From: Syntrophaceae bacterium
Lineage (GTDB): Bacteria; Desulfobacterota; Syntrophia; Syntrophales; Smithellaceae
Reading direction: 5' to 3'
NCBI GenBank assembly: GCA_016928765.1
Contig: JAFGKC010000036.1
Coordinates: forward strand, 1-43,887
DNA length: 43,887 nucleotides
Shown here: piece by piece, positions 8,830-35,865 of the stretch
Position numbering within the stretch: the stretch's first letter is position 1
Layout: every line of letters starts with the position of its first letter
The notes under the pieces: generated by a model
The model's input: the letters and a program-made list of their open reading frames with translations, nothing else
What the model was told of the DNA's origin: nothing
Database searches by the model: none
Position numbers and translations under genes: made by a program

Positions 8830-8833
8830 AATT

Positions 8834-10962: not shown

Positions 10963-11008
10963 TCGAGATTAATTGAGGAATATAAACCGACGAAAGTAAA
11001 AAATATTT

Positions 11009-15798: not shown

Positions 15799-15827
15799 TT
15801 TACAAATCAGTGGCGGAGCACTATATT
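15799..15827 (+). promoter_or_regulatory. candidate sigma70-type promoter for hsp20-lon
   Basis: TTTACA-N17-TATATT. However, it lies about 180 nt upstream of the hsp20 start, with hairpin repeats in between. Confidence 0.3.
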
Positions 15828-15876
15828 TTGAAGCGAGCACTTAATATATTGAGACATTTGCAAGACTCCTCTATTC

Positions 15877-19553: not shown

Positions 19554-19590
19554 ATATTCTTATGTTTGAATTTGATCAAAATAAATAGTT

Positions 19591-19646
19591 GCCCAACAAG
19601 GGCAATCCGGCCGATCGCTGCGCTCCGGCTAATTTTTTTGTTAGAT
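19591..19646 (+). repeat. attC-like repeat, copy D (56 nt)
   Basis: GCCCAACAAGGGCAATCCGGCCGATCGCTGCGCTCCGGCTAATTTTTTTGTTAGAT, bounded by GCCCAAC (RYYYAAC) and GTTAGAT (GTTRRRY). Confidence 0.5.
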
Positions 19647-19666
19647 GAGAAAATAAATAAATTATT

Positions 19667-20608
19667 ATGAATAGACCACTTGTTTTTATTAGTTATGCTG
19701 GCGATGAATTAGATTTGGCTGATTTTGTCAAAAATTTTCTACTACGAGTATCAGGTAATAAAATAGAAGTGTTTGTGGCGAAACGGGATATATCATCAGG
19801 AGCAGATCCTTTAAAAACTATGTTAAATGAAAAATTAAGAAATGCTGATGCAATTATTCCTATTTGTTCTTATAAGAGCAAGGATACTCCATGGCTATGG
19901 TGGGAATCGGCCTCAGTCTGGGCTAAAACTGGAAAAGTTCACCCTCTTTTCACGAATATTTCAGCAAATGTATTCGGCGGCCCACTCATTTTAGTTGTGC
20001 AAGGAAAGGAGTTTTTTACAAAACAAGAATTTTTTCAAACAATAGATGCGCTCTGCAAAAATGTAAATATAACAGTAACTCAATTGGATTTTACGGAAGA
20101 AGAGGCGGTTAGATATACTGAACTAGAGAAAGCTAGTTCAGTATATACTCATCCAGCAAGTATTAAGATCGACTATAAAATTATTGAGCAAACCCAACTC
20201 TACCATAAGTATTCTCTAATATTTGAAATACAAAATAAGAGCGAAATTGCTTTTGACGACATAGTATTAGATATATTCTTTCCCACAGAATATCTAATTA
20301 TAAAAAACTGGAATTATCCTTTTTTAGCTTCATCACTTCCAACGGATAAGCCGGGATATACATGTCTAACATTCATATTCAACAACATATCGGAGAAAGC
20401 TAAACAAAAATTTTCTCAATTTCTGCTGCCAGAAAAAATATTAAAAATATTTGGCGTAGATGAAGGAAGAATTAACAGCTTAGAATATGAGATGGATAAT
20501 AACAGATGGGGCAGTAGGTATAAATACAAAATAAGTTATAATTTGTATATAAACAAGAAAGCCCCTCAAAGGGGAAGCATAGATTTTTCTACCCTGCAAT
20601 TCTTTTAA
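19667..20608 (+). CDS. TIR-domain protein with an uncharacterised ~170-aa C-terminal domain
   Basis: The N-terminus matches the bacterial TIR pattern: VFISYAGDE...A.F....L.....IEVFVAKRDISSGADP......L.NADAIIPICS..Y..S.PWLWWE. E80 (nt 19904-19906) aligns with the WCxxE catalytic Glu. About 33% GC. Confidence 0.7.
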   Translation: MNRPLVFISYAGDELDLADFVKNFLLRVSGNKIEVFVAKRDISSGADPLKTMLNEKLRNADAIIPICSYKSKDTPWLWWESASVWAKTGKVHPLFTNISANVFGGPLILVVQGKEFFTKQEFFQTIDALCKNVNITVTQLDFTEEEAVRYTELEKASSVYTHPASIKIDYKIIEQTQLYHKYSLIFEIQNKSEIAFDDIVLDIFFPTEYLIIKNWNYPFLASSLPTDKPGYTCLTFIFNNISEKAKQKFSQFLLPEKILKIFGVDEGRINSLEYEMDNNRWGSRYKYKISYNLYINKKAPQRGSIDFSTLQFF

Positions 20609-20670
20609 TCAACATCTAATAAGTAGATCTAGCGGATCACGTGACGCTCCGGATAAATTTTTCGTTCACA
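20607..20670 (+). repeat. attC-like repeat, copy E (64 nt, boxes degenerate)
   Basis: AATCAAC...GATCACGTGACGCTCCGGATAAATTTTTCGTTCACA. The right half is conserved with the family, and the TIR gene's TAA stop overlaps the left box. Confidence 0.35.
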
Positions 20671-20844
20671 GCAGGTATTTCGCCACAAAGGATAAAAAGC
20701 CATTCCCGCGAATGGTAAAGTCTACCCCGATTGACAACGCATTTACAAATCTGGTATGGGCAACGTCGATTGCTTGCTTTGACTCATTTAGCTGACTGTG
20801 GAGCTGGCCAGCCAAGATGAACAAAATCCAGCATCAAAATATTA

Positions 20845-21753
20845 TTGTTTTATTTTAAATCTACAGGAGAAAAAATGAAAGACTTTAAAGGCAAGACCGC
20901 TTTCGTGACCGGCGGAGCGGAAGGAATCGGATATTTTATCGGCCAGATGCTGGCCAAACAGGGCATGAACGTGATGCTCTCAGATATCGACACGAAAATG
21001 CTGAATTCGGCTGTCAAAACACTTCAGGCCGAAGGTCTGAAAGTACAAGGCGTTCCCCTGGATGTCACGCTGAAAGAAGAGTGGATTGCCGCCGCCCAAA
21101 AGACGGTTGAAGCATTCGGCAAAGTGCATATGCTGGTCGGCAATGCCGGTGTGGGCCCAAACGGCGCGCATCACACCATCGGGGAAAACAACTGGCGTTG
21201 GGTGCTGGATGTAAATGTAATGGGGCTTGTTTTCGGTGGCGAGGTGTTCATCCCTCTTTTGAAAGCCCATGGCGAAGGCGGATATATTCTGAATGTCGCT
21301 TCCATGGCCGGAATTCAGGGCGTGTCTTATGCCGGTGCCTACTGCGCGAGTAAAGCGGCCGCCGTGAGTATCTCTGAATCCTGGCGCTCCGAACTCCAAA
21401 AAGACGGCATTGTGGTTTCGGTTTTGTGTCCGGCGTTTGTTAAATCCCGCATCTATGACAGCATGCGCAACCGCCAGGCGCGCTACGGTGGGCCGGTAAG
21501 TTTTGATGATCTGGTCAAGGAGAAGCCAAAACGGGCATTCAATAAAGAGCTGGTGGTTACCGGCATTGACACGGATATTGTTGCCAACCGCGTTTTGGAA
21601 GGGCTGAAAGAAGAAGAATTCTATATTTTTACACATCCCCATTTTCGCGAGATGATAGAGAAGCTCAACGCCGAGCTAATCAGCGCTATGGAAAAAGCGG
21701 AAGCCAGCCCGGCGCTGGAAAGCGTTCCGCGTAAAGGGGTTATTATTTATTGA
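20845..21753 (+). CDS. SDR-family oxidoreductase
   Basis: TGGAEGIG cofactor motif and YCASK (YxxxK). The likely start is the ATG at 20875, after AGGAGA. About 52% GC. Confidence 0.85.
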   Translation: MFYFKSTGEKMKDFKGKTAFVTGGAEGIGYFIGQMLAKQGMNVMLSDIDTKMLNSAVKTLQAEGLKVQGVPLDVTLKEEWIAAAQKTVEAFGKVHMLVGNAGVGPNGAHHTIGENNWRWVLDVNVMGLVFGGEVFIPLLKAHGEGGYILNVASMAGIQGVSYAGAYCASKAAAVSISESWRSELQKDGIVVSVLCPAFVKSRIYDSMRNRQARYGGPVSFDDLVKEKPKRAFNKELVVTGIDTDIVANRVLEGLKEEEFYIFTHPHFREMIEKLNAELISAMEKAEASPALESVPRKGVIIY

Positions 21754-21782
21754 AGAATTGCCGCACCAAGTAAACACAAAAT

Positions 21783-21825
21783 ATTTAACGACCGCGCAGC
21801 GCTCCGGCTGATTTTTTTGTTAGTG
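21783..21825 (+). repeat. attC-like repeat, copy F (43 nt, shortened left half)
   Basis: ATTTAACGACCGCGCAGCGCTCCGGCTGATTTTTTTGTTAGTG. Confidence 0.4.
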
Positions 21826-21844
21826 CTTTCATGGAGGTATTGAA

Positions 21845-22378
21845 ATGAATTTATATTTTAGATTAATCTGGACAATAATTCGATCATTTTTCAGGCCAAA
21901 GATCAATTTTTCTGATGAAGTAGTTCTTAAACTTCGTATTTTCCCCAATGATTTGGATATAAATCGCCATTTAAATAATGGTCGTTATTTAACCATCCTT
22001 GATTTAGGAAGCATTGATCTCTTTCTAAGAAGCGGTGTTTTAGTCCGAGCTATTAGAAATGGATTCAGACCAATGATAGGAGGACTAATCGTAACATACC
22101 GTAATAGTTTGTCGTTGTTTGAGCAGTGTACACTTACCATGAAGTTGAAAGCGTGGGATGATTATTGGAATTATTTTAAGTTTGAATTTCGGAAGGTAGA
22201 TGGACGGCTTTCTGCCTCCGGATATTTTAAGGGAGCGTTTGTATCAAAAAATGGTTTAGTCCCAAATAATGTGGCAGATGAAATTTTTGAATATAAGCAT
22301 GGCTTTTGTGAACTGCCTCCAGCGGTAGAAAATTGGATAAGGGCAGAAAATCATCTATCTGGAGAGAGTATCACCTAG
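21845..22378 (+). CDS. hotdog-fold acyl-CoA thioesterase family protein (4HBT_2-like)
   Basis: RIFPNDLDINRHLNNGRYLTILDLG pattern. GGAGG Shine-Dalgarno sequence 8 nt upstream. Confidence 0.65.
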   Translation: MNLYFRLIWTIIRSFFRPKINFSDEVVLKLRIFPNDLDINRHLNNGRYLTILDLGSIDLFLRSGVLVRAIRNGFRPMIGGLIVTYRNSLSLFEQCTLTMKLKAWDDYWNYFKFEFRKVDGRLSASGYFKGAFVSKNGLVPNNVADEIFEYKHGFCELPPAVENWIRAENHLSGESIT

Positions 22379-22379
22379 C

Positions 22380-22410
22380 AAAAAAAGCGGCCGCGAAAAA
22401 CCGGGCCGCT
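22380..22410 (-). terminator. Rho-independent terminator (reads as a terminator on the minus strand, downstream of pfk)
   Basis: Stem AGCGGCC / GGCCGCT around an 11-nt loop. On the minus strand it is followed by T7. Confidence 0.5.
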
Positions 22411-22443
22411 TATAATGCGTTATATGAAAACATCTTATTTCAT

Positions 22444-22518
22444 TAGCATTAAAAGTATTACACGCTTTGAAATTATCTTGCTCAAACTATTTTAAGCCGC
22501 AGATTGCGGGCGCTGTGA
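22444..22518. repeat. direct repeat, copy 1: remnant of the DEAD-box helicase 3' end plus downstream sequence
   Basis: Aligns to 32920-32992, with the right ~50 nt about 90% identical. On the minus strand it still reads SQRPQSAA-stop, versus SQRSQSAA-stop at the real helicase C-terminus. Confidence 0.75.
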
Positions 22519-22531
22519 TTTTGAATTAGCT

Positions 22532-23635
22532 TTAACGCATAGTTCTGCGTCCGTTGTACCTTTCTGTATCGTAATATTTTTCTACATCGACTAATTTTAG
22601 CTTATCGATAATTTCTTTAAGGGGAACACCGGTAATTTCTCCGCGCACCCAGGAGACCATGCGCCCGAAATCCTCATTGATAATCATGTCAACGGCGGCG
22701 ATACCAAACCTTCTTGCCATCAGGCGATCGTAGGCGGAAGGTGTTCCGCCGCGCTGGAGATGGCTCAGGATGATATGGCGTGATTCAAACCCGGTTTTGC
22801 TTTGAATTTCAGAGGCCACGTAACTAGCAATTCCGCCAATCGATTCATGCCCGAAATCATCAACGCAACTATCTTTGAGACATTCCCGCCCTCCCGCGGG
22901 CTTGGCCGCTTCGGTAACCACAATGATGGAATAGTTGATTTCACGGCCATGCCGCTGCCGCAAAAGTTCACATACGCGTTCCATGTCAAACGGATATTCG
23001 GGGATAAGAATAATATACGCGCCGCTGCATTCGCCGCCGTGGAGAGCAAGCCAGCCGGCATGGCGTCCCATTGTTTCCACAACAAAAATACGGCCATGGG
23101 AGCCGGCAGTTGTTCTCAACCGGTCGATTTCTTCCATGATAACGTTAACCGCGGTGTCAAAACCCAGTGAATATTCAGTTCCCATAAGATCATTGTCGAT
23201 TGTCTTGGGGATACCCACCGTTTTGATACCCAACTTATGTAATTTATAGGCGACACCCAGGGTATCTTCGCCGCCGATGACAACCAGCGCGTCAATTTCC
23301 AACTTTTTTATATTATTGATTAGTTTTGCCGAACGGTCATTTTGGGGATTAAAGGGATTTGTTCGCGACGTTCCCAGGTTTGTTCCTCCGTAACGATCCC
23401 ATGTCCGGACGATCTCTTCGTCTAAATGTTTGATGTACTTCTCGCAGCTTCTCGGATCATCGGGATCAACATCGACAATGCCTTTCCAGCCGTCAGCAAT
23501 GCCAAGAACTTCAAAAGACATGGAACGATTGGCCGCAATTTTCGGATCGAGCGCGCTTTTCGTTACCCATTTGATAGCGCCGTTGAGTCCCGGACAGTCC
23601 CCTCCGCCTGTTAGTATGGCTATTTTCATTTTCAT
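22532..23635 (-). CDS. pfkA: 6-phosphofructokinase (PfkA family; phosphoryl donor ATP or PPi not resolvable from sequence)
   Basis: TGGGDCPGLN, VVIGGEDTLG, IPKTIDNDL and TMGRHAGW motifs. Confidence 0.88.
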   Translation of the reverse strand: MKMKIAILTGGGDCPGLNGAIKWVTKSALDPKIAANRSMSFEVLGIADGWKGIVDVDPDDPRSCEKYIKHLDEEIVRTWDRYGGTNLGTSRTNPFNPQNDRSAKLINNIKKLEIDALVVIGGEDTLGVAYKLHKLGIKTVGIPKTIDNDLMGTEYSLGFDTAVNVIMEEIDRLRTTAGSHGRIFVVETMGRHAGWLALHGGECSGAYIILIPEYPFDMERVCELLRQRHGREINYSIIVVTEAAKPAGGRECLKDSCVDDFGHESIGGIASYVASEIQSKTGFESRHIILSHLQRGGTPSAYDRLMARRFGIAAVDMIINEDFGRMVSWVRGEITGVPLKEIIDKLKLVDVEKYYDTERYNGRRTMR

Positions 23636-23693
23636 AATTTTCTTCCTTGGCGTAGTAAAAATATTTAAATTTTTAAATGAAAAAAAGAACCCT

Positions 23694-26600
23694 TTATTCT
23701 GATAGCGATATACTTTGATCCATGCCCGCGGCTGGTATTTTTACCTCGACCAAATGTTCTTGCCGATCATTAATCAGTTGAATTGTCCGGTCGGGTCTCG
23801 CGAAGCCGTCCAGGGTGACACTCGTTTCTTCGTCGCTGTCATCTGTTTGCCGCACAGTAATTTTGTAAGAAGTCTCTCTAAACGTATAAAGAATTGTGAA
23901 CTCATTCCAATGGGCGGGAAGGCAGGGCTTAAAACTCATTTTATCCATATTGATCGAGAGTCCCAAAAGTGATTCCAGGATTAGCCGGTACATCCAGGCT
24001 GCGGAACCGGTAAACCATGTCCAACCGCCGCGGCCGACATGCGGCGAAACAGCATAAACGTCGGAAGCAACAACATAAGGCTCAACTTTATAGATAGCGA
24101 CTTGCGCTGGCGATAGCCCGTGATTGATCGGATTGATTATGGACAATAGATCCCACAGGCGCTGATGGTCGCCAAGCGCCGCAAAGGCCATGGCCGCCCA
24201 GATGGCCGCGTGTGTGTACTGGCCGCCATTTTCTCTCACGCCGGGTACATAACCTTTAATATAGCCTGGTTCCATTTCAGCTTTATCAAATGGCGGGTCA
24301 AGCAATTGGATCAGTTTTTTATCCCGGTGAACCAGAAGCAAATCTACGGATTCCATAGCTTGCCGCATTCGTTCAGGAGTACCGGCTCCCGATAGAACAG
24401 ACCAGCTTTGCGCAATCGAGTCAATACGGCATTCCATGTTTGTTGCCGATCCCAATAAAGATCCGTCATCGAAATAGGCGCGGCGGTACCACTGGCCGTC
24501 CCAACCTTCGCGCTCAATGCTTTGCCGCAACTTGCTTGCCTGGCTATGGCACAACTCGGCAAAAGCCATGTCACTTTTAAGACGGGCGATTTCGGCAAAC
24601 TTAATTAATATTTCGTAAAGGAAAAAGCCCATCCAGACACTTTCGCCTTGGCCTCCTTCTCCCACCTTATTCATACCGTCATTCCAATCGCCTGTGCCCA
24701 TCAGCGGCAGGCCATGACTGCCGAATCTTAGACCTTTTTTAATCGCTCGCGCGCAGTGATCGTATAAACTAGCTGTTTCATCAGCAATACCCGGCAGATC
24801 GTAATAAGAATCCTCGTCTTCTCTTACCTGGCGGCCATCAATAAATCTGACGAGTTCATCCAAAATGCTCAAATCACCGGTAGTGATAATATAGCGACTC
24901 ACGGCCAAAGGCAGCCACAGATAATCATCAGAACATCGTGTGCGCACTCCCCTTCCTGAAGGCGGATGCCACCAATGCTGGGCATCGCCATCCTGAAATT
25001 GACGGCTCGCGCACAAAAGCAGGTGCTGACGGACAAGAGCAGGCACGGCATAAACAAGCGCCATGGTATCCTGTAGCTGGTCACGGAATCCGAAGGCGCC
25101 GCCGGACTGGTAATAACCGTTACGCGCCCAAAGACGGCAGGCGATCGTCTGGTATAAAAGCCAGCCATTGGCCAGCACATTCACAGACACATCCGGAGTT
25201 TCTATTTGTATGATACCCAGAGTCTTGCGCCAGTATTCCTGCACCGCCTCCAGAACGCCTTGCGCGATGGTTGATCCTCTAAAACTTTTGACTGTGTTGC
25301 TGGCATCATCCGCGCCCCTTCTTCCGGTAACACCCAGCCTGAAGATTGTTTCCTGAACTTGCCCGGTGTCTAATTCCAAATTAACTTGGATGGCGCCGCA
25401 CGGATCCAGAGCCGCGCCAACTTTGCCGGAAAGTTGTGTCCGCGTCATTGCCGCAGGAGCAGAAAGCGCGCCATTGCGCCCGATAAACTCCGTTCTGTCT
25501 CCGGTGATGGTGCGATTTTTATCGTCTACATCAAAGAAAACCACCCGGTCGGCAAATTCCGCGTTGTAAGCGTTGCGCGCGAAAAGCGCTCCGCTTCCCG
25601 TATCGACTTCGGTGGTCACATGCATCATTGTTTTGGACCGCAAATCACCGAGTACCCACTCCACGTAACCTGTTACCGACAGGCTGCGGGATCGGCCCGA
25701 ATCATTGCGCAATTTTAATACGGTAAATTTAACCGGCGCGTCGATGGCCACATAGATCCACAGTTCTGATCGAATTCCTTCTTCCGTATGTTCGAAAACA
25801 CTATAACCGAATCCATGCCGGCTGATGTAGGGTATTGCCGAGCGGCAGGGCAGGGGCGCGGGCGACCAGAAATGACCAGTTTCTTCATCACGTATATAGA
25901 ATGCTTCTCCACTGAGATCGCTTACGGGATCGTTGTACCAGGGTGTCAGGCGGAACTCATGAGCATTCTCCTTCCATGTTGAAGCAGACCCGCTCTCTGA
26001 AACAACTGTTCCAAAGTGCGGGTTAGCCAATACATTCGCCCAGGGTGCCGGTGTCACCTGACCCGGTTTTGTCGTGATGACATATTCACGCCCGTCGGGT
26101 GTAAATCCGCCCAGTCCGTTTTCGAAAAGCAGAGGGGATGAAGGAATTTCCTCTGTCTTCCGGATTCCCGTATATTGCGCGCGAGTCGGTTTGAAACGCG
26201 GAACAACTGTTTCTCTAAGAGAACGGCGGCTGATTTGCTCCGCCAGAGTTCCCCAGTTATCCTTGATTACTATACGGGCAACAGTTTGCAGAAGAATCCT
26301 GTCTTCATTGGATATCTGATCACCGGGCCGGAGAAATATGCCACCTGGCTTATCTACAACTTTTGCTTCCCTCCCTGCTGTAATCATGTCTTTTATCTGG
26401 TCGTGGAGGAATTGTCTGTAGATTGCATTATCTTCATTCCAAATCATTAAATCCACCGCCAGGCCTTTTAAGCGCCAGTACGCGTGCGCCTGTTCGAGTT
26501 GACGCACAAGTTCGATGTTTGCGTGGTCACCGATCTGGAGCAATACAATGGGCAAATCTCCGGAAATGGCGTAACCCCATAAACCAGATTGCCCTCGACG

Positions 26601-29600
26601 GTTTTTGATGATTATTTTCTGATCAGCGCGCAGTGATGCATTGCCGTAAATGACGCAACCGGCCAATTGTCCGTAAAGTTGAGCGTCGGCTTCCGAGGCA
26701 TTGATTTGATGCAAGACTACCTGGCTGTGGGTCCACGCCAGATCAAAAACACGATCAGCAAGACGCTGATCGTGATATTTTTCGGAAAGGCCAAGCGCCT
26801 GCTCCCGGGTTTCACTGATACCGGAAACAATATCAATCATCACCGATTCTCCCGCGTCCAGCTTAACGCGGCAACGTATCGCCGCTATGGGATCGAGAAC
26901 GGAGCCTTGAGTATTCGAAAGCGTTTCTAAAATATTTTCAGACCAACGCATCGCCTGAGGATCGGCCAAAGTATTTCCACGGCCGATAAACTTTAAGCGA
27001 TCCGTTTCATAGGAAACATCCTTGTTTGGTTTACCGTGCAAGGCCATCAGGTGAAACATCCAGCGCGAAGGTTCATCTTTTGAACGCGGCCTTCTTGTGC
27101 AGAGAATTGTCTGGCGTTCACGGATGATTTCCGTCTGAACAAAAAGATTGGCGAACGCGGGATGCAGCGCGTCAGCTGCGGGCTCCGCCAGAACAATTTC
27201 CGCGTAACTGGTTATATCCAGATCTCTTGGCTTTCGCGAACGGTTGGTGATGCGAACACGGCGCAGTTCAATATCATCCTCGGGGGATACGGCTATTTGA
27301 GTGTGTGTGTCGATTTCATGATCGCGACGCCGAAACTCAACTCTGGCGTCAGAGAAAATTGCTTCATATCTTTCCGGCTGTTTCAGAGTTGGTTGATAAG
27401 CTGTTGACCAAAACTCTCCATTGGTCGTATCGCGAATATAACAGAATGTTCCCCAATTATCGCGGGTAGAGTCTTCACGCCAGCGTGTGACGGCCAGATT
27501 GTTCCAGCGGCTGTATCCACCCCCCGCGTTGGTGATCATCACATGGTATCTTCCATTGGACAATAATTGCACCTTCGGTACTGGTGTATGGGGAGTGTTA
27601 AATATGCGCGCCGGAAACTCCTGAGTGATTGTAGCTTTACGTATGGTAGCGTCCTCGGAGATCTGCCGGTAGAAGGCCACCGCCCGGGGAATACGCTCCT
27701 GTAGCAGCAGCATGGTTGATTGAAACATCGGCTCGGACGCGAAACGTTTTTGCATCGGACAATCAAGCAGCAGATGGGACAAGGCCAGCAAACTCATGCC
27801 CTGGTGATGAGCCATGAAGGATTTGACCACAACACTCGATTTACCGCGAGGCAGACGCGAAGAAGTGTAATCTATCGCTTCGTAAAAACCATATGGCCCT
27901 TCCATGCCCTCTCTGGCCAGCTGCTGCAAATTCAGGCAGGCTTCTTCCGGCGCGACCATCAACGCCAGAGCTGAAGCATACGGCGCGACAACCAGATCAT
28001 CGGAAAGTCCTCGTTTGAGGCCGAGCCCCGGAACACCAAAGGCACGATACTGGTAGTTTTGATGGACATCTATTGTACTGTAACCGGATTCGGAAATGCC
28101 CCAAGGCACGCCACGGCTTTTTCCATAGTCAATCTGCCTGCGGACAGCCGCCGTGTATGTCTGATCCAACAGTGTGCTTTCATAAGTGGGCATCACCAAA
28201 AGCGGCATAAGATATTCGAACATTGAACCGTCCCAGGAAAGAAGAACCGGATATCTCCCCGGATTTGTCAGCAGGCGTCCCAGGGCAAACCAGTTTTCCT
28301 GAGGCAACTGTCCCTGCGCGATACCGATAAAACTGCAAAATCTGGCCTCTGAAGCCAAGAGGTCATAGTAACTTGCGTCCCGGCGGCGCTCAGTGGTGTT
28401 ATAGCCAATAGTCAACAGATGACTTCCTTTATCATAAAGAAAACTATAATCCATATCAGCAAAGTCATTTGCTTGTGCTGCCAAGCGGTCAATTGCCGTT
28501 ATTCTTTCCAAGGCGCGCTGAGAGCCTTCCTTGATCATCCGGCGAAAATCGGAAAACCACGCTTTCTCTTCGGCAGTTGCGTTGATGCTAAGCATGCTTT
28601 CGATTACGTTTTTTAATTTCTTTTTTGATGTTATCAATTCCCGTAACGTGGGAATTTCCATAGTTTCAAGAAACTCGCTTAGCCTGGCTGAAGGGGGTGT
28701 AAGTGTAATCCACGGACAGAAAAAAGAAATTTCTTCCAAGGCATCGGAACATTGATGCACCAGAGTTTTTACCCACCACAAGGCATCACTATCGTTGTTT
28801 GTGTCAAAGGCGCGGGCAAGATCAATTGAGGCGTTTGCCAGATCTTCGAGGCGCCGTCGCAATGGCTTAATCATATTTTTATCGGGATCCGGCAATGAGG
28901 ACAGATATTTTTGAAAATCGGCAAGCTGTTTTGGCGCTCCCGCTCCCGCAACTTCAGCCAGAACAGTAATAGTGTCGCCAATGCCGTTAAACCATTGAAA
29001 TCCGCAAATCTTCTGATCGGGAAGCTCAATAAGTCCCCGCCGTAACGTTAATAAGTGACCGCTGAGATTTCCACTATCCACGGTGGATATGTAATGAGGC
29101 CGCAGTGTGGCTAGGCTTTGTGTGTCGTACCAGTTATAAAAGTGACCACGATAGCGCTGCAATTTCCCCATCGTATGGAAGGCATCGGTGGTGCGTTCGA
29201 TTAAGTCTCCCAGCGAAATATAACCAAAATCATACGCGGATAAATTTGCAAGCAAGGCCAGTCCCATGTTTGTCGGCGATGTGCGATGCGCGATGACGGC
29301 AGCCGGATGTTCCTGATAGTTATCCGGCGGCAGCCAATTATCATCGGGCCCGACAAATGTTTCGAAGAACGCCCAGGTTTTACGGGCAATTTTTCTCAGA
29401 AAAATCATTTGCTCTTCTTTAAGTTTTATAACACCGGACGCAATTGGCCTGCTGACCCACCACGTAACCCCGGGAGATAGAAACCACAGAACCAGGACAA
29501 ACAAAGCCGCGCCAAGAGCGCCGGGTCTGGCCATCATGAGATAAATAAATAGCGCTAAAGAAAGTAAAGGAGCTATCCACATCGACCGGCAGGAAGCGGC

Positions 29601-32456
29601 AAAGGTATTCAGGTTGCGGCTCGCCAAATTTCCGGAAGGATTCCACTCCAGCAGCCGCTTATGTGAAACGTGCATTCGCCAGAGAGTACGCGCAATCGCG
29701 TCCAGGCTAAAAAATGCTTCATAGGGAAGGCAAACGAGGGTGTACAAAGTCTGAACAAAGTGCCTGCGGGCCTGACGCAGTGCTGTGAAAAAGTGTTGGT
29801 TCCATAAGACATCTCCCGGCTTGCGGAACAGTTCCAGAAGTATTTCGCCCGCGGGAGGAATAAGAAGAATGCCGATCACCAATATTGTCCATAACCAAAC
29901 CGGAGAAATGATGGCCCATCCCATAATTAACATCAAGGTCAAAGCCGCGGGAACCAGAGAGCGCCGGAGGTTGTCGAAAATCTTCCACTGGGAAAGCCAG
30001 GATATTTTATTTTTCTGCTGTCTGCCGTCTGCGGTGGGCACGGCCGATCTCAGCCAACTGGCAATTTGCCAGTCTCCGCGAATCCAGCGATGTCTGCGGT
30101 TCACATCTACGTGGTATTGAGAGGGGTATTCCTCGTATAGCTGAACATCAGAAAGCAAGCCCGAACGCGCATAACAACCTTCTATCAGATCATGGCTGAG
30201 TATCCGGTTTTCCGGGAAGCGGCCACCCAGAGCCTGCTCAAACGCATCGACATCATAAATGCCTTTACCTATGTATGAACCTTCACCAAAAACATCCTGG
30301 TAGATATTGGAAACAACGCGCGTATAAGGGTCAAAGCCGGTTTCACCCCCCCAGAGGCGCGCGTACCAAGATTTGCCGTCACCCGATAAGGTTTCGGCGA
30401 TACGCGGCTGAAGAATGCCGTAACCTTCACAAACGCGTTGCCGCGCTTCATCATAACGTGGACGATTCAGCGGATGGGCCATCGCCCCCACGAATTGCTG
30501 CGCGGAATCGCGAGGAAGTTGAGTATCCGTATCTAGCGTAATGACGTACTTCACATTAGATAATATTTCTGGAATACCAATGACGTGAGAGAAACAATCT
30601 TTTGCGCCGCCGCGCAGAAAAGCGTTCAGCTGGGCGATCTTTCCACGCTTGCGCTCATAACCCATCCAAATTTGCTCCTCGGGATTCCAGCTACGCGGAC
30701 GATGGAAGAGAAAGAAAGTTCCTCCTTTTGTGTCCCTATACTTATCATTTAGTTCTTCAATCCTCTTTTGAGCCAACTGAATCAGCTCATCGTCCGTGGA
30801 AGTTTTTTCTTCATGGGCATCGAGGAAGTCGGTTAGCAGGGCAAAATGCAGATTGTTATCCCGATTGGCCAAAAATCTTATTTCCAGTGATTCAACCAGG
30901 GCTTCTACGTTTTGAGCGGACGAAAGCATAGTCGGGATTACCACCAGCGTGCTTGATTCCGTAGGAATTTCCCTGGAAAAATCCATGCGCGGCAGCAGAT
31001 AAGGATGGGCGAAAAGCGTAGCCAGCCAGTTGATCAGAGCTACGGCGAGACTGCTTGCGCCCAGAATAAAAATAACAGCGATAGGCACAAGTATCCAGCC
31101 GTGCAAACTATGGTTTTGAACTTTTAGAAGTAAGCCGAAAGCCGTGATGAGAGTGATGGCCATGATGGCCGAAAGATATGTGAACAACGGAAACCTGGAA
31201 AAGATTTGACGGATGGACTCAGCGATGAGTTTGCGTACCTGAGCCCTTTGTTCAAGCTTGGGCAATCCCTTGTCGATTAGATAAAAACCAACATGAGTCT
31301 CCCGATCGCCATTTCTGCACGCGGATGAGGCTTGGCGTGATAAATCAATGGCTAAACGCGCCACGTCACTTTCGGAGAGGCGGCTTTTTTTTGCTATTTT
31401 TTCCACGGCGTGACGATAACGGTCTCTGGTGGTAAAATCCATTTTGATATAGACATCACATGGGTCTTCACGAAGAGTCTGTTCAACAACGCTCATTGTC
31501 TCCACAAACTCATGCCAGTTCATGGATGTCAGAAACCTCAGGCTGCCGATACTGTTACTCACAGATACCTGGTCGGCGGCCTGTTGCTGATTTTCGGAGC
31601 GGACCAGCTGTTCAATCGTCAAATGAGACTCGGCAAGCCGCTGCTCAATCCAGGTGATGGGCAGAGCCAGCGCCGGACTTTGTCCTTGCAAACGGCGCGT
31701 AAATTCCGCGACAAATGAACTTGTCATCGGTTGATCGGACCGTGCCATGTCGGCAATTACCAAAACGAGGCTTTTAGGATCGCTCCTCGCGATATTGGCC
31801 ATCTGGTTCGCCCAATAATCGGCGCGCTCCCTGTAGGCAATGCCAGCGGTAATTCGCGTTCCAATGCGCCTTAGATTTTCGATCAGCGCCAGCCGCAACA
31901 TAATCGGAATTGCCCACAACTCGCCCAATTTCAGAGGGGTTATTGTCTGGTAGGCCGTAACAAAGTTAATGAGACTTTCCATATCCACCCGTCCATCACC
32001 GTGAGAGATTGTCTCAAGGGCAATATCATATACACGGGGGAGCCCGGCCGATGGCCCGTTTTGCAGACGCGGCAATCCCCGGCTATAGCCTTTGGACAGG
32101 TGTCTTTTAGCCAGACGAATATGCTCTTCAATTAAGTAAAAGTTATCCAGAAGCCATTCTTCGGCAGGAGCTATTGTGCTGTTATCTTTAACCGCATCTG
32201 TCAGCTGGTTGCATGTTTTAATCAGAACATCTTCGTTGTTATGAAGCCGTGTCAGAAGCTGTTCCGAAGCCCTGGCACGAGTCAATTTATGCACATGCGC
32301 CAGCGCTTTGCCGCGCTGTTTCATCTGTTCGGAGCTTAGCAGTTCCGAGCGCAGCGGTAATTCATCAGTGGATTGTTTTTTTCCGAAAGCGCCGCCGGGA
32401 AAAGATTTTTTCAAGCCCGGCAATGTCGCTAAAGCTTTTTTATCGTTTAACTTCAA
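23694..32456 (-). CDS. cyclic beta-1,2-glucan synthase-like giant protein (NdvB/ChvB/Cgs family), 2920 aa
   Basis: TM segments flank a GT84-type domain (VITLDTDTQLPRD, GYGILQPR, SHDLIEG, RHRWIRGDWQ). The C-terminal region is GH94 / cellobiose-phosphorylase-like (GGAFGFRDQLQD, GTGDWNDGMN). TTG start preceded by GAGGAGG 8 nt upstream. Confidence 0.85.
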   Translation of the reverse strand: MKLNDKKALATLPGLKKSFPGGAFGKKQSTDELPLRSELLSSEQMKQRGKALAHVHKLTRARASEQLLTRLHNNEDVLIKTCNQLTDAVKDNSTIAPAEEWLLDNFYLIEEHIRLAKRHLSKGYSRGLPRLQNGPSAGLPRVYDIALETISHGDGRVDMESLINFVTAYQTITPLKLGELWAIPIMLRLALIENLRRIGTRITAGIAYRERADYWANQMANIARSDPKSLVLVIADMARSDQPMTSSFVAEFTRRLQGQSPALALPITWIEQRLAESHLTIEQLVRSENQQQAADQVSVSNSIGSLRFLTSMNWHEFVETMSVVEQTLREDPCDVYIKMDFTTRDRYRHAVEKIAKKSRLSESDVARLAIDLSRQASSACRNGDRETHVGFYLIDKGLPKLEQRAQVRKLIAESIRQIFSRFPLFTYLSAIMAITLITAFGLLLKVQNHSLHGWILVPIAVIFILGASSLAVALINWLATLFAHPYLLPRMDFSREIPTESSTLVVIPTMLSSAQNVEALVESLEIRFLANRDNNLHFALLTDFLDAHEEKTSTDDELIQLAQKRIEELNDKYRDTKGGTFFLFHRPRSWNPEEQIWMGYERKRGKIAQLNAFLRGGAKDCFSHVIGIPEILSNVKYVITLDTDTQLPRDSAQQFVGAMAHPLNRPRYDEARQRVCEGYGILQPRIAETLSGDGKSWYARLWGGETGFDPYTRVVSNIYQDVFGEGSYIGKGIYDVDAFEQALGGRFPENRILSHDLIEGCYARSGLLSDVQLYEEYPSQYHVDVNRRHRWIRGDWQIASWLRSAVPTADGRQQKNKISWLSQWKIFDNLRRSLVPAALTLMLIMGWAIISPVWLWTILVIGILLIPPAGEILLELFRKPGDVLWNQHFFTALRQARRHFVQTLYTLVCLPYEAFFSLDAIARTLWRMHVSHKRLLEWNPSGNLASRNLNTFAASCRSMWIAPLLSLALFIYLMMARPGALGAALFVLVLWFLSPGVTWWVSRPIASGVIKLKEEQMIFLRKIARKTWAFFETFVGPDDNWLPPDNYQEHPAAVIAHRTSPTNMGLALLANLSAYDFGYISLGDLIERTTDAFHTMGKLQRYRGHFYNWYDTQSLATLRPHYISTVDSGNLSGHLLTLRRGLIELPDQKICGFQWFNGIGDTITVLAEVAGAGAPKQLADFQKYLSSLPDPDKNMIKPLRRRLEDLANASIDLARAFDTNNDSDALWWVKTLVHQCSDALEEISFFCPWITLTPPSARLSEFLETMEIPTLRELITSKKKLKNVIESMLSINATAEEKAWFSDFRRMIKEGSQRALERITAIDRLAAQANDFADMDYSFLYDKGSHLLTIGYNTTERRRDASYYDLLASEARFCSFIGIAQGQLPQENWFALGRLLTNPGRYPVLLSWDGSMFEYLMPLLVMPTYESTLLDQTYTAAVRRQIDYGKSRGVPWGISESGYSTIDVHQNYQYRAFGVPGLGLKRGLSDDLVVAPYASALALMVAPEEACLNLQQLAREGMEGPYGFYEAIDYTSSRLPRGKSSVVVKSFMAHHQGMSLLALSHLLLDCPMQKRFASEPMFQSTMLLLQERIPRAVAFYRQISEDATIRKATITQEFPARIFNTPHTPVPKVQLLSNGRYHVMITNAGGGYSRWNNLAVTRWREDSTRDNWGTFCYIRDTTNGEFWSTAYQPTLKQPERYEAIFSDARVEFRRRDHEIDTHTQIAVSPEDDIELRRVRITNRSRKPRDLDITSYAEIVLAEPAADALHPAFANLFVQTEIIRERQTILCTRRPRSKDEPSRWMFHLMALHGKPNKDVSYETDRLKFIGRGNTLADPQAMRWSENILETLSNTQGSVLDPIAAIRCRVKLDAGESVMIDIVSGISETREQALGLSEKYHDQRLADRVFDLAWTHSQVVLHQINASEADAQLYGQLAGCVIYGNASLRADQKIIIKNRRGQSGLWGYAISGDLPIVLLQIGDHANIELVRQLEQAHAYWRLKGLAVDLMIWNEDNAIYRQFLHDQIKDMITAGREAKVVDKPGGIFLRPGDQISNEDRILLQTVARIVIKDNWGTLAEQISRRSLRETVVPRFKPTRAQYTGIRKTEEIPSSPLLFENGLGGFTPDGREYVITTKPGQVTPAPWANVLANPHFGTVVSESGSASTWKENAHEFRLTPWYNDPVSDLSGEAFYIRDEETGHFWSPAPLPCRSAIPYISRHGFGYSVFEHTEEGIRSELWIYVAIDAPVKFTVLKLRNDSGRSRSLSVTGYVEWVLGDLRSKTMMHVTTEVDTGSGALFARNAYNAEFADRVVFFDVDDKNRTITGDRTEFIGRNGALSAPAAMTRTQLSGKVGAALDPCGAIQVNLELDTGQVQETIFRLGVTGRRGADDASNTVKSFRGSTIAQGVLEAVQEYWRKTLGIIQIETPDVSVNVLANGWLLYQTIACRLWARNGYYQSGGAFGFRDQLQDTMALVYAVPALVRQHLLLCASRQFQDGDAQHWWHPPSGRGVRTRCSDDYLWLPLAVSRYIITTGDLSILDELVRFIDGRQVREDEDSYYDLPGIADETASLYDHCARAIKKGLRFGSHGLPLMGTGDWNDGMNKVGEGGQGESVWMGFFLYEILIKFAEIARLKSDMAFAELCHSQASKLRQSIEREGWDGQWYRRAYFDDGSLLGSATNMECRIDSIAQSWSVLSGAGTPERMRQAMESVDLLLVHRDKKLIQLLDPPFDKAEMEPGYIKGYVPGVRENGGQYTHAAIWAAMAFAALGDHQRLWDLLSIINPINHGLSPAQVAIYKVEPYVVASDVYAVSPHVGRGGWTWFTGSAAWMYRLILESLLGLSINMDKMSFKPCLPAHWNEFTILYTFRETSYKITVRQTDDSDEETSVTLDGFARPDRTIQLINDRQEHLVEVKIPAAGMDQSISLSE

Positions 32457-32529
32457 TGCTTGAACCTCCTCACTGGATGAAAAGCCGTCTATAGCCGGGT
32501 ATATTTTGTTTACGGGACGCGTTTATTTG

Positions 32530-32583
32530 TTTGGTTTGGTAAGCTGTATAATAAATACAGTACAAATCTGCTACCGAACCAAA
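32530..32583 (-). promoter_or_regulatory. nested inverted repeat upstream of the glucan synthase gene (possible operator or leader hairpin)
   Basis: TTTGGTTTGGTAAGC ... GCTACCGAACCAAA arms enclose TGTAT-AATAA-ATACA. The element lies 75-125 nt upstream of the TTG start and overlaps -10-like TATTAT/TATACA on the minus strand. Confidence 0.3.
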
Positions 32584-32919
32584 AATTATCAGCAACTGTT
32601 TGCCTTTTGAAAACAAAAAATTAAAACAGGGACATCGTGAAAAAAGAAAAATAACAAATATGGTGGAACGAAAAATGTCTTATAAACGTTTCGCTTTTAA
32701 TACATTAAATCGTTACAAAATTCAATGCCAATGTTATGTCCATTCCGGCGCAAGGTGCTATTCTGACACAAGTGAGGTTTATTATAGGGCTCAATCAACA
32801 CAAAATAATTAAAGAAATATCAGCATAAAAACCGGGTTTTGCTAAATAGGATTGACAAAGTAGGCTTAACCTTTGACCAAGCTTGATGTCACAGAACAAC
32901 AGAGTATCTTCTGCTTAGT

Positions 32920-32992
32920 TAGCATTAAAATATCGATTGCTTAGAAATTATCCTGCTCAAATTTTTTAAGCCGCGGATTGCGAGCGCTGTGA
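32920..32992. repeat. direct repeat, copy 2 (functional helicase 3' end plus downstream sequence)
   Basis: Partner of 22444-22518. Confidence 0.75.
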
Positions 32993-34246
32993 CCAAGATG
33001 ACCGGTTAGCATTGCCGAAGGAACGCTGTTTCGGTTTTCTTCTGGTTTGCATATGAGGAGCAAATGATTTTCTTCTGTTGATGGATTTCATATCAACCGT
33101 ATTTTTCTTAGATGAGCTATTGTGTATCTCGGAAGTTAATCCATCTACATTATGATATTGCAATTTTTCTCCGAGTATTCTTTTGAGGGAATGCGCGAGG
33201 CCCATGTCGTCTCCGGTCACAAAGGTAAAAGCGTCACCGGTTTTCGAGGCGCGCCCTGTTCTGCCGATGCGATGAGTATAGGCATCCGTGGTGGAAGGCA
33301 TATCATAATTAATGACATGCGATATGCGTGTCACGTCAATACCACGGGCGGCAATATCGGTGGCAACCATGATTTCGTAACGGCCATCACGGAAACCGTC
33401 CAGCGCTTGTTTGCGTTTCTGCTGGGTGAGATTTCCATGCAGTGAAATGACTTTGTGTCCCGATCTATCCAACTGCAGAGCTAAACTTTTTGCCCTTGAT
33501 TTTGTCCGCGTAAAAACCAGAACTGATTCCATTTCGGTCTTGTCCAGAATATCTTTGAGCAATGCTGTTTTAGTGCCCATCTGGACAGGGTAAAATCTAT
33601 GTGCCACCGTCATCACCGGCGCTGTGTGGCCGATTTGAATATTTACGGGATTGCGTAGAAGATCCATGGCCAGTTTACGCACATCGTCGGGCATTGTCGC
33701 GGAAAAAAGCAAGGTCTGTCGTTTTTCGGGAAGATGTTTTACGATTCTTCGAACATCCGGCAGAAAGCCCATATCAAACATATGATCCGCCTCATCGAGT
33801 ACCAAAACTTCCACATGGGACAAATCAACGGTGCCGCGTTCGATGTGATCAAGTAAACGGCCGGGGCAGGCGGAGATAATTTCCACATTACCGTGCAGTC
33901 TGTTGATCTGGTTATGAATGCTTACTCCGCCGTAAACAGCTGTACTGCGCAGCTTCGTTTTACGTCCCAGTTCTTTAATTGCTTCGAGGGTTTGCTCGCT
34001 TAACTCGCGTGTCGGAGCTATGATCAGGGCGCGGATATGGCCGAGCGGCTTTTCCATGAAACGCTGTAAAATCGGCAATACAAAGGCCGCGGTTTTTCCT
34101 GTTCCGGTCTGGGCAAGTCCCATAAGATCTCGGCCTTCCATGATCGGCGGGATTGCCTGTAGTTGAATCGGTGTCGGCTTTTGGTAACCAAGCATTCGCA
34201 CACCGGTCTGTATTTTTTCGTGTAACTCAAATTTCTGAAAACTCAT
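32966..34246 (-). CDS. DEAD-box ATP-dependent RNA helicase (RhlE-like)
   Basis: Q-motif region, AQTGTGKT, VLDEADHM (DEAD), SAT and HRIGRTGR, with a basic C-terminal tail. Confidence 0.92.
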   Translation of the reverse strand: MSFQKFELHEKIQTGVRMLGYQKPTPIQLQAIPPIMEGRDLMGLAQTGTGKTAAFVLPILQRFMEKPLGHIRALIIAPTRELSEQTLEAIKELGRKTKLRSTAVYGGVSIHNQINRLHGNVEIISACPGRLLDHIERGTVDLSHVEVLVLDEADHMFDMGFLPDVRRIVKHLPEKRQTLLFSATMPDDVRKLAMDLLRNPVNIQIGHTAPVMTVAHRFYPVQMGTKTALLKDILDKTEMESVLVFTRTKSRAKSLALQLDRSGHKVISLHGNLTQQKRKQALDGFRDGRYEIMVATDIAARGIDVTRISHVINYDMPSTTDAYTHRIGRTGRASKTGDAFTFVTGDDMGLAHSLKRILGEKLQYHNVDGLTSEIHNSSSKKNTVDMKSINRRKSFAPHMQTRRKPKQRSFGNANRSSWSQRSQSAA

Positions 34247-34737: not shown

Positions 34738-35865
34738 ATGAAAGAACTCAATATAAGGGGTCTAATAGCAAAAGTGCCTATTATTCAGGGCGGCATGGCC
34801 GTGGGAATTTCAAAACACAGGCTGGCTTCCGCGGTAGCCAATGCCGGAGGTATTGGTGTGATCGCCACAGCGGGAATCGCGCATTTGGCAGATGACGCAA
34901 GGACAAATTTTGTTGAAGCCAACAACAGGGTTTTTGCCGAAGAAATTAGAAAAGCAAAATCCCTTACCAAGGGAATCATCGGAGTTAATATAATGGCGGC
35001 GCTTTCCAATTATGCCTCGCTGGCGAAAGTGGCCATTAAAGAGAAAGCTGATATCATTTTTTCGGGAGCCGGATTGCCCTTAAGCCTTCCTTCGTTTTTG
35101 CCGGAAGGAAACATCAGCACAAAACTTGTACCTATCGTTTCTTCGGCGAAGGCTTTAGCGCTGATCGCGCGCCGCTGGATCGGTAAATTTAACTATGTTC
35201 CAGACGCGGTGGTGATCGAAGGCCCATTAGCCGGCGGGCATTTGGGTTTCAAAAAAGAGGATATTTTTAATGAAGAGTATTCCCTGGAGAAACTGGTTCC
35301 TGAGGTTGTGGCACAGGCAAAAGAACTGGAAGATAAACACGGTAAGCCTGTTCCGGTAATTGCCGCCGGCGGTATTTATTCCGGCGCGGACATCCGGAAA
35401 TTTATTGAAATGGGAGCATCCGGTGTGCAGATGGCCACGCGTTTTGTGGCGACGCATGAATGTGACGGCTCCGATGAAATAAAAAACGCCTTTGTCAACG
35501 CTAAAAAAGAAGACATTGTTATTATAGAAAGCCCGGTGGGAATGCCCGGAAGAGCTATTCGAAATCAATTTCTTGATGATGTGGCGGATGGCCGCAAAAA
35601 ACCTTTTAAGTGCCCTTTTCATTGCATCATAACCTGCAACATGAAAGATGCGCCTTATTGCATTGCCAATGCTTTATGTAACGCCACGGAAGGTAAGCTC
35701 TCAGAAGGATTTGCCTTCGCGGGCGAAAATGTCTGGCGGGTCGATAAGATTGTTCATGTGAGCGAACTCATGCAGTCATTGCAGGATGAATATGCTGAAG
35801 CGAAAAAGAATAATCAAAAAATTGCCGCAACGGTTCGTCCACAAGAACATAGATTATTCAGTTAG
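34738..35865 (+). CDS. nitronate monooxygenase / FabK-like FMN-dependent oxidoreductase (NPD family) with a C-terminal Cys cluster
   Basis: IIQGGMAVGIS...LA.AV.NAGGIGVIA, GPLAGGH and AAGGI motifs. There is an extra CPFHCIITCNMKDAPYC segment. Confidence 0.75.
   Translation: MKELNIRGLIAKVPIIQGGMAVGISKHRLASAVANAGGIGVIATAGIAHLADDARTNFVEANNRVFAEEIRKAKSLTKGIIGVNIMAALSNYASLAKVAIKEKADIIFSGAGLPLSLPSFLPEGNISTKLVPIVSSAKALALIARRWIGKFNYVPDAVVIEGPLAGGHLGFKKEDIFNEEYSLEKLVPEVVAQAKELEDKHGKPVPVIAAGGIYSGADIRKFIEMGASGVQMATRFVATHECDGSDEIKNAFVNAKKEDIVIIESPVGMPGRAIRNQFLDDVADGRKKPFKCPFHCIITCNMKDAPYCIANALCNATEGKLSEGFAFAGENVWRVDKIVHVSELMQSLQDEYAEAKKNNQKIAATVRPQEHRLFS

Follow-up and report, generated by a model that had tools for sequence, protein, structure and literature searches.

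The contig JAFGKC010000036.1 of a Syntrophaceae bacterium from the Smithellaceae (GCA_016928765.1), which we analysed over its whole 43,887 nt and refer to as the window, carries two direct repeats of about 75 nt each that bracket a block of DNA holding a giant cyclic β-1,2-glucan synthase gene (cgs, or ndvB) and a phosphofructokinase gene (pfk). Both repeats contain the 3′ end of a DEAD-box RNA helicase gene; at one end of the block this gene is intact, and at the other end its tail stands alone. We compared the window with loci fetched from relatives, numbered with the prefix L, using pfk, the helicase gene, further members of the pfk cluster and the Zn-peptidase gene zn285 as anchors. Coordinates refer to the window unless a relative's locus is named.

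A composite direct repeat around cgs and pfk

The two copies of the repeat, at 22444–22518 (copy 1) and 32920–32992 (copy 2), share a 50-nt core (GAAATTATC...GCTGTGA) in which 45 of 50 positions match (90%). A BLAST self-comparison aligned 22443–22518 with 32919–32992 at 84.2% identity over 76 nt, a BLAST search against the whole window returned the repeat at 89% over 55 nt (E = 3.6e-10), and the degenerate core pattern is expected 0.00 times by chance (100 shuffles). Copy 2 holds the genuine helicase stop codon (32966–32968) preceded by the last eight codons, SQRSQSAA, and copy 1, which starts 13 nt past the pfk stop codon (22532–22534), reads SQRPQSAA and a stop codon on the minus strand, with the helicase body absent. 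These results bear out the first-pass annotation of this DNA, which had reported a direct repeat of about 90% over about 50 nt with the real helicase C-terminus in copy 2 and an orphan tail lacking a gene body in copy 1. Its remarks that the distal end of a plus-strand gene array adjoins copy 1 (the array ends at 22378, copy 1 begins at 22444) and that the GC content of the block is not distinct from that of the backbone (0.46–0.54 versus 0.42–0.52) held as well.

The annotation had further described the repeat as a copy of the helicase 3′ end, which is correct for 27 nt of helicase coding end but not for the adjoining ~46 nt, which derive from the 3′ coding end of zn285. We term zt the degraded copy of the zn285 3′ end that is located after the helicase stop. 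Local alignments of the zn285 tail to the two repeat copies scored 23 and 26, compared to a null distribution of 7.6 ± 1.3 with a maximum of 15 (n = 2946), and in the related locus L085 FEQGNFQACDTFNAN and a stop codon can still be read downstream of the helicase stop, in a stretch 91% identical to the zn285 tail of the window. Two duplications are thereby seen at the locus: that of the zn285 tail (35858–35905 versus 32920–32965) brackets an NMO gene together with the helicase gene, and that of the helicase tail plus zt brackets the cgs–pfk block, with the zn285-derived layer nested inside the latter repeat. This nested, composite nature had been overlooked in the first-pass annotation, as had the variation of the right junction among lineages that is described below.

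Neither repeat copy folds significantly (z = −0.02 and +0.84), no Rfam family was found in the window, and the 10-mer TTAATGCTAA, common to the repeat and the pfk end, has 10 matches against 4.65 expected, an enrichment that is not clear. We considered the repeat as a multi-copy element and rejected this, the repeat being present in the window in two copies only; we likewise rejected a terminator or other structured element, as the fold is non-significant and the intrinsic terminator of the locus lies outside the repeat. That terminator (Table 1) probably ended the helicase transcript originally and would now end the cgs–pfk transcript. The product of cgs matches the NdvB/Cgs structures 8rf0 and 8rf9 in the Protein Data Bank with E = 0 and 2037 bits.

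Table 1. Features at the helicase–pfk locus, in window coordinates.
Feature	Coordinates	Strand	Remarks
Orphan helicase tail in copy 1	22492–22518	−	Last 8 codons and stop (SQRPQSAA-stop); same 27 nt in L178, 197-nt version in L002
Rest of copy 1	22444–22491	−	5-nt linker and zt (22444–22486); 40/51 matches to zn285 tail
True helicase tail in copy 2	32966–32992	−	Last 8 codons and stop (SQRSQSAA-stop)
Rest of copy 2	32920–32965	−	More diverged zt directly after helicase stop; 39/51 matches to zn285 tail
Right-junction microhomology TCACAGCGC	22510–22518	−	Shared by native pfk-downstream DNA and helicase codons 419–421; pfk-downstream sequences of 13 lineages compared
Block (read here as inserted), ~10.4 kb	22519–32898	−	13 nt, pfk, cgs and AT-rich promoter spacer
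pfk, 367-aa phosphofructokinase	22532–23635	−	PF00365; NCBIfam PFK_mixed/ATP-PFK
cgs/ndvB, 2920-aa cyclic β-1,2-glucan synthase with GH94 phosphorylase domain	23694–32456	−	PF06165, PF17167, PF10091
AT-rich promoter spacer, ~440 nt	32457–32898	−	Upstream of cgs
DEAD-box RNA helicase, RhlE/CshA-like, 426 aa, intact	32966–34246	−	Domain and homology matches
zn285, Zn-peptidase	35858–36715; true 3′ end 35858–35905	−	Ends ...FEQGNFQACDTFNAN-stop; source of the zt segments
Intrinsic terminator, hairpin and T-run	22388–22411	−	33 nt beyond copy 1; DNA fold −13.2 kcal/mol, z = −3.1
Variable array, four open reading frames (ORFs) downstream of lon	18942–22378	+	~55-nt attC-like repeats between ORFs (families D6, I1–I3)

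Occupied and empty sites in related genomes

The nearest homologues of the helicase and of the phosphofructokinase come from metagenome-assembled genomes of Smithellaceae and Syntrophales. A metagenome scan with the helicase returned mainly distant relatives in which its contexts are unrelated, and the exact helicase protein had no record among public contigs. A synteny comparison of the interval between lon and the helicase gene, which the first-pass annotation had proposed, revealed three states of the locus, unoccupied sites included. In the occupied state (window, L002, L081/L178 and L181–186), the order is helicase→ cgs→ pfk→ ... ←lon. Helicase-only sites occur in two forms, both lacking cgs and pfk between helicase and lon: L187–189 show zn285, an OMP gene, ←NMO, helicase→, ←a 366-aa ORF and ←lon, and L083–86 show hyd→ helicase→ zt ←three small ORFs ←lon. 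A third group (L193–195) is doubly empty, with the order hyd→ zn285→ ←Na/H exchanger ←lon ←hsp20 typA→ and with NMO, helicase, cgs and pfk all absent. The genome that contains L085 (SPRUCE 595) has a single pfk on another contig (L004), not accompanied by cgs, and distant relatives hold pfk and the helicase gene in other, stable contexts. The ORF content of the variable array is different in each relative.

The block is also found away from the helicase. Window positions 32872 to 22509 match positions 763–11127 of L001 (UBA4810) at 93.6% identity over 10.37 kb, and there the block is flanked by a methyltransferase gene on one side and by DUF3795 and CHASE2-cyclase genes on the other, with neither helicase nor flanking repeat; this context is repeated in five further contigs (L170–174). 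The presence of the same 10.37 kb at an unrelated locus indicates that the block moves as a unit. An empty site matching the L001-context flanks was not found in any fetched locus. In L170, positions 763–11196 comprise the spacer, cgs, pfk and 95 nt of native pfk-downstream DNA between the methyltransferase and DUF3795 genes, and the same sample (ERZ27315071) yielded both L170, with the block at the second locus, and L187, with the empty helicase site.

More broadly, three arrangements link pfk with cgs: cgs→ pfk→ as in the window; pfk→ ←cgs (L003, L072); and pfk→ cgs→ at six more distant loci (L068, L071, L073–L075, L079). The spacer's proximal ~300 nt accompany cgs in the convergent pair of L003. 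Adjacency in three orientations and three clades suggests selection for keeping the two genes together. The contexts of pfk are stable within the Smithella and Syntrophus clades, and at least six contexts occur among the closest relatives. We also considered an Rrf2–MnmA context as the ancestral pfk locus and rejected it, as it was found in L005, L006 and L175–177 only. The C-terminus of the phosphofructokinase itself differs with context, ending in RRTMR after cgs in the window, L001 and L002, in RRTILEC in L178, and elsewhere (L072, L004, L080) usually in RRTIL or a near variant; this indicates that the 3′ end of pfk changed around the time of the rearrangement.

Comparing the junctions of the block across these loci, we observed that the left junction is constant in all occupied lineages, consisting of the helicase stop, zt, ~25 nt shared with L085 and ~60 nt before the block, which joins ~85 nt downstream of the helicase stop. 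The right junctions, by contrast, are three different ones in three lineages. In the window and in L178, the pfk stop is followed by 13 nt and then by TCACAG(C/T)GC..., which is helicase sequence from codon 419 onwards, and by zt. In L002, 12–13 nt separate the pfk stop from a 197-nt helicase tail, with 63 codons intact and 92% identity to the L002 helicase gene, after which comes segment S, our term for a stretch of native pfk-downstream DNA in L181 and L001. In L181–186, the pfk stop is followed by ~115 nt of native pfk-downstream DNA, S among it, and then by an orphan zt′; a helicase remnant is absent after pfk in these loci. The zt′ of L181, ~150 nt after pfk, matches the zt of L085 at 23 of 27 positions, with an alignment score of 19, where the null reached 16 at most.

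The native pfk-downstream sequence, ...AAATCATAGCGCC... in L181 and L001, carries the junction motif ATCATAGCGCC there and TTAAAGCGCT in L003, and it matches the helicase gene both at codon 419 (GGTCACAGCGC) and at codon 363 (TATCATAACG). Two of the three right junctions fall at a match to ATCATAGCGCC, namely at codon 419 in the window and L178 and at codon 363 in L002, and these junctions therefore lie in microhomologies of 8–10 nt (in the window, TCAYAGCGC). A derivation of the 27-nt remnant of the window from the 197-nt type of L002, through loss of 170 nt between TCATAACG and TCACAGCG, is possible but superfluous, as TCATAGCGCC is native pfk-downstream sequence (L003, L181, L001). A MAFFT match of segment S of L181 and L001 to the helicase tail was set aside as spurious, as L002 holds both the full remnant and S. 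The orphan tail of L002 (its positions 11117–11313) keeps 63 codons in frame with 16 substitutions and 7 amino-acid changes; it is closer to its own gene (92%) than helicase tails are between species (~82%), which suggests gene conversion or a recent secondary event.

The empty sites also allowed us to ask which of the two copies is resident. Positions 12539–14185 of L187, comprising the last 27 nt of the real helicase gene, zt and the 366-aa ORF, are collinear with positions 11118–12778 of L178, comprising the orphan tail and its flank (91.2% over 1.66 kb), and positions 11829–12586 of L187 match positions 1–757 of L178, which hold the helicase body and copy 2. This collinearity identifies copy 1 as the original helicase end. 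In the window, too, the copy-1 remainder beyond the helicase tail is of the same type as the sequence after the real helicase stop in empty-site genomes. The copy-1 zts (window, L178, L181) are 79–88% identical to the empty-site zt of L085 and to true zn285 tails, and the copy-2 zts (window, L178, L002, L181) are 74–88% identical among themselves, compared to only 69–79% between the two groups. The zts thus sort by position and not by genome, the pattern that a resident copy 1 and a copy 2 brought along by the block would produce. As judged from these alignments, the resident helicase end, zt and terminator appear to have stayed in place, with the block entering upstream of them.

The first-pass annotation had proposed that pfk, the synthase gene and the AT-rich spacer came as a unit at the helicase 3′ end, possibly long ago. 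The empty sites, the second locus of L001 and the collinearity of L187 with L178 support arrival as a unit, and the divergence of the block supports its age. Nucleotide identities of lon and typA to the window are 88.8% and 89.6% for L178, 86.4% and 90.5% for L002, 83.2% and 83.3% for L181, and 81.1% and 84.3% for L085, and those of cgs are 91.5% for L178, 88.5% for L002 and 86.1% for L181. Since block divergence tracks core-gene divergence, the block has been inherited together with its flanks since before these lineages split. The insertion appears, on this comparison, to be old and vertically inherited since, which fits the sorting of the zts by position. The annotation had also named a shared gene order lacking repeats, together with vertical descent, as evidence that would speak against an insertion; part of this is indeed found, L181–L186 sharing the order without a helicase remnant and block divergence tracking that of core genes, and the idea of an insertion is nonetheless kept.

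Read support for the repeat junctions, another check put forward at the outset, was obtained for the copy-1 junction: a Logan contig of run X1 spans 21500–24504 with zero differences, showing that this junction was assembled independently. Across the 56% of run X1 examined, Logan contigs cover the copy-1 junction and not the copy-2 junction. The same geometry is contiguous in the independent assemblies of relatives (L002, L178, L181–L186).

Several further observations concern these loci. In L169 (7815–9206), L087, L167 and L168 the helicase is 94–97% identical, and homology to the window ends at the helicase stop codon, which in L169 is followed by a SocA_Panacea module. Upstream, L169, L087 and L167 have a mechanosensitive-channel gene in place of zn285, with NMO reduced to fragments, and the independent contigs L167 and L168 both terminate at helicase codon 374, as if the assembler had met a repeat. 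In L004, a 245-nt direct repeat (88%; 3437–3681 versus 11113–11357) begins immediately past pfk, and the 7.4 kb between its copies include pfk; the distal part of the repeat belongs to a multi-copy family (also at 14131–14216, 15754–15839 and 16341–16401) with a hairpin and a promoter-like TTGACA...TATACT motif.

Origin of the repeat

The repeat is the scar of a rearrangement at an insertion hotspot and not a working element. As to how it arose, we favour, with a probability of roughly 60%, an insertion of the block just downstream of the helicase gene, with a homology anchor on one side and an illegitimate join in microhomology on the other, by which the resident gene end was orphaned. In the ancestor, zn285 and lon would have stood face to face, and layers of DNA would have been added between them. 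NMO and the helicase gene would have been inserted as the first layer, stranding a zn285 tail after the helicase stop, and the 10.4-kb block of promoter spacer, cgs and pfk would have joined later, ~85 nt past that stop. The left side of the incoming DNA would have recombined through helicase-end homology, bringing its own helicase tail and its own zn285 remnant as copy 2, and the right end would have been joined illegitimately in the 8–10-nt microhomology TCAYAGCGC at helicase codon 419. This would have pushed the resident zt, the terminator and the final 27 nt of the helicase gene 10.4 kb away, where they survive as copy 1. Entry of DNA from another cell, one-sided anchoring by homology and this order of events are inferred. 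The microhomologies at the right junctions, TCAYAGCGC in the window and L178 and ATCA/ATAG in L002, match native pfk-downstream sequence, and the left junction is constant and lies beyond the homology of helicase tail and zt, as homology-facilitated illegitimate recombination would leave them.

Several points weigh against this account. In L002, segment S stands after the 197-nt remnant, where a single homology-anchored acquisition does not predict it, and the two copies of L002 are 92% alike, compared to ~82% for helicase tails and 78% for the spacer between species; to account for both, one would have to invoke gene conversion, secondary events, or repeated acquisition in which a new right join was made. 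The parallel divergence of block and core genes means that there is no direct sign of horizontal arrival, and the empty sites could in principle be secondary losses through recombination between the repeats. Among the Logan contigs of run X1, no joint linking 22.5 kb with 32.9 kb is listed, and neither a circular or excised form nor an empty-site read was seen in them. The account would also require that these uncultured bacteria take up donor DNA, by natural transformation or an equivalent.

The L002 data lend themselves to a different explanation, in which the block already stood beside the helicase gene and the repeat is silent on its arrival: an event within the chromosome, either a tandem duplication or a template switch during replication between pfk-downstream ATCATAGCG and the similar helicase sequence at codon 363 or 419, followed by partial collapse through illegitimate deletion. 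On its left the helicase fragment of L002 borders on ATCA and on its right on ATAG; the native heptamer ATCATAG contains both, and with S following it the fragment looks like a patch in the pfk 3′ flank; its similarity to the copy-2 counterpart makes the two look younger than the species split, and L181 has the same gene order with zero helicase remnant. Yet the orphan tail of the window and of L178 runs into resident-type zt, and in L178 then into 1.66 kb whose orthologue in L187 flanks the real helicase end, which fits displacement better. Two illegitimate events per lineage would also be required, and the orphan zt′ ~150 nt after pfk in L181 would be left unexplained, so that we regard a purely intrachromosomal origin as unlikely.

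A decayed or non-autonomous site-specific element, with the helicase 3′ end as its attachment site, the repeats as attL and attR and an integrase lost or encoded elsewhere, would share the geometry of e14 at icd, in which the intact gene runs into the element and a C-terminal pseudogene, icdC, lies at the far end (PMC13626634). Direct repeats at both ends of the block do include the 3′ end of a target gene, with one of them completing the gene, unoccupied sites exist (L083–86, L187–189), the block occurs at two loci, and the geometry is repeated at carB and zn285. What such an element should carry is missing, however: Pfam scans of all larger window ORFs and of the L001 flanks detected no integrase, transposase or relaxase, no excisionase was found in the block, the 43.9-kb window or the L001 flanks, and the window contains no tRNA genes. 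A fixed crossover core should give a single right junction, whereas codon 419, codon 363 and no remnant at all are seen in three lineages, and the L001 copy has no flanking repeat; the cargo, moreover, is backbone-like in composition. We consider a site-specific element quite unlikely on these grounds. Other mobile units fit no better. The block ends lack the ~55-nt repeat of the neighbouring array, the repeat copies have no significant fold, and the block is unlike an integron cassette both in its size of 10.4 kb and in its genes, which run opposite to those of the array; with no transposase, no convincing inverted repeats at the block ends by eye, and a duplication of 75–200 nt compared to the 2–14-bp target-site duplications of transposons, it does not resemble a transposon or insertion sequence either.

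If the order helicase–cgs–pfk were ancestral, with no insertion in the window lineage, the empty sites of L085 and L187 would be deletions through recombination between the repeats. Such recombination restores an exact single helicase end, and a crossover in the 27-nt part leaves a copy-1-type zt, just as in L085 and L187; L181, which is about as far from the window as L085, is occupied. This reading is very unlikely all the same: a loop-out would delete pfk, but the single pfk of the L085 genome sits at another locus (L004), L193 lacks even the helicase gene, distant relatives keep pfk and the helicase gene in their other stable contexts, and the origin of the repeat itself would go unexplained. 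That copy 1 is the last piece of a decayed helicase paralogue, or a functional element (terminator, small RNA or attC) overlapping a gene end, is largely refuted and hardly credible: although L002 retains 63 in-frame tail codons and a terminator lies 33 nt beyond copy 1, the remnant adjoins the pfk stop with no helicase homology further upstream in the window, L178 or L002 (even the longest, the 197 nt and 63 codons of L002, starts abruptly 12–13 nt past that stop, contrary to the decayed paralogue that the first-pass annotation had weighed), and copy 1 is one of only two copies in the window, has neither a significant fold nor an Rfam match, and is without the conserved motif of the attC-like ~55-nt repeats nearby.

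Known systems and other stranded gene ends

At icd of E. coli, the e14 prophage (and phage 21) duplicates the 3′ end of the gene and leaves the icdC pseudogene (PMC13626634, citing Hill et al. 1989). As in that system, one copy here completes the intact gene and a C-terminal fragment is stranded at the far end of the insert, and at icd recombination between the copies can restore a single gene. In contrast, e14 brings its own site-specific integrase, and SOS induction triggers its excision at a fixed core, whereas the present locus has no recombinase, two metabolic genes of host-like composition and a variable right junction at microhomologies. Islands at the 3′ end of fda in streptococcal integrative and conjugative elements (ICEs) have a similar geometry (PMC7563491). 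Tycheposons, which are islands of Prochlorococcus, integrate repeatedly at one site, with newer arrivals pushing older ones inward and partial copies of the target gene left behind (bioRxiv 10.1101/2020.12.28.424599). The nested layers of zn285 tail and helicase tail resemble such arrays, but tycheposons target tRNA genes and carry tyrosine recombinases, whereas here protein-coding gene ends are involved and no recombinase is present. With neither an integrase nor a fixed core, our case falls outside the e14/icd, fda-island and tycheposon families. Cis-mobilizable elements (CIMEs), known from the literature on ICESt1 and ICESt3, are islands that lack an integrase and lie between direct repeats copied from a housekeeping gene's 3′ end, with successive insertions at one site. 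CIMEs keep defined att sites that are used by the integrase of a related ICE, whereas no ICE gene was found in the window and no ICE, att core or integrase could be shown here.

Homology-facilitated illegitimate recombination is referred to as a concept in PMC6382021 and PMC8116780. The junction anatomy at the present locus is like that of this process and of insertion-duplication. Work by de Vries and Wackernagel and by Prudhomme and colleagues, both of 2002, reportedly describes a homologous anchor at one junction, a microhomology of a few bases at the other, foreign DNA placed beside the anchor, and duplication or deletion of recipient sequence nearby, with no enzyme of an element taking part. 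The mechanism has been described in Acinetobacter and Streptococcus transformed in the laboratory, and for the Smithellaceae it is the junction anatomy that points to it. The locus also conforms to the general concept of integration hotspots between conserved core genes (PMC2617782), in that the short interval between zn285/hyd and lon differs in its accessory genes from each related genome to the next; unlike at usual hotspots, the order of insertions can be read here from the nested orphan gene ends. The repeat is thus an ordinary rearrangement scar, made unusually informative by these ends.

Its identity is thereby settled: it is a gene end moved out of place, by which gene gains can be dated and ordered, and is itself neither regulatory nor mobile. 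The locus offers a clean natural case of nested orphan 3′ ends at a recombinase-less integration hotspot, useful for studying how accessory genes enter genomes that have no obvious mobile elements. For annotation, the case carries a warning that short in-frame gene ends after unrelated genes are relics and not genes to be called. The finding that cgs and pfk travel together in these syntrophic bacteria, in three arrangements of which one occurs at two loci, may point to a functional link of this phosphofructokinase with glucan synthesis.

Bracketing by gene tails recurs in these genomes: a carB tail brackets hicBA and a zn285 tail brackets NMO and the helicase gene in the window, a 100-nt zn285 fragment accompanies the Na/H exchanger gene in L193, and a 139-nt ORF tail is duplicated in L072. 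In L193, the orphan zn285 3′ fragment (10550–10648, compared with 8725–8824; 85% identical) lies between the exchanger gene and lon, and is another tail-bracketed insertion, of a Na+/H+ exchanger gene, at this hotspot. A wider idea, which we offer tentatively and think improbable as it stands, is that Smithellaceae move chromosomal blocks without element-encoded recombinases, by loop-out or uptake followed by re-entry into related genomes through gene-end homology and microhomology, stranding a resident gene end each time. If true, recombinase-free movement would explain together the three orphan tails of the window, those of L193 and L072, the varied right junctions and the second locus of the cgs–pfk block, and orphan gene tails would provide a readable order of gene gains at hotspots.

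The carB case in the window has the geometry that the first-pass annotation had likened to that of the helicase, with an intact gene, an insert and an orphan tail. A 90-nt direct repeat (4227–4316 and 4793–4882; 90% identical), made up of the last 42 nt of carB and a 48-nt hairpin region, brackets the toxin–antitoxin pair hicA (4323–4508; HicA, PF07927) and hicB (4505–4696). The carB gene itself is present as two overlapping minus-strand ORFs, 7441–8040 (199 aa, with a pre-ATP-grasp domain) and 4841–7588 (915 aa), a split that implies a frameshift near 7590–7670, which could be a sequencing error or the mark of a pseudogene.

Elsewhere in the window, repeats of ~55 nt with a CGCTCCGGCT core lie between small unrelated ORFs in two opposed arrays, at ~1680–4140 and 18942–22378, with copies on the plus strand at 19591–19650, 20640–20668 and 21795–21823 and on the minus strand at 2247–2299, 2866–2915 and 3265–3288. 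Some copies have attC-like ends (GCTCAAC...GTTGGGC, GTTAGGC), and one copy only folds with paired ends. These arrays look like integron cassette arrays, in a window that has no integrase. Their ORFs include genes for a TIR-domain protein, an SDR, a thioesterase and a lipocalin.

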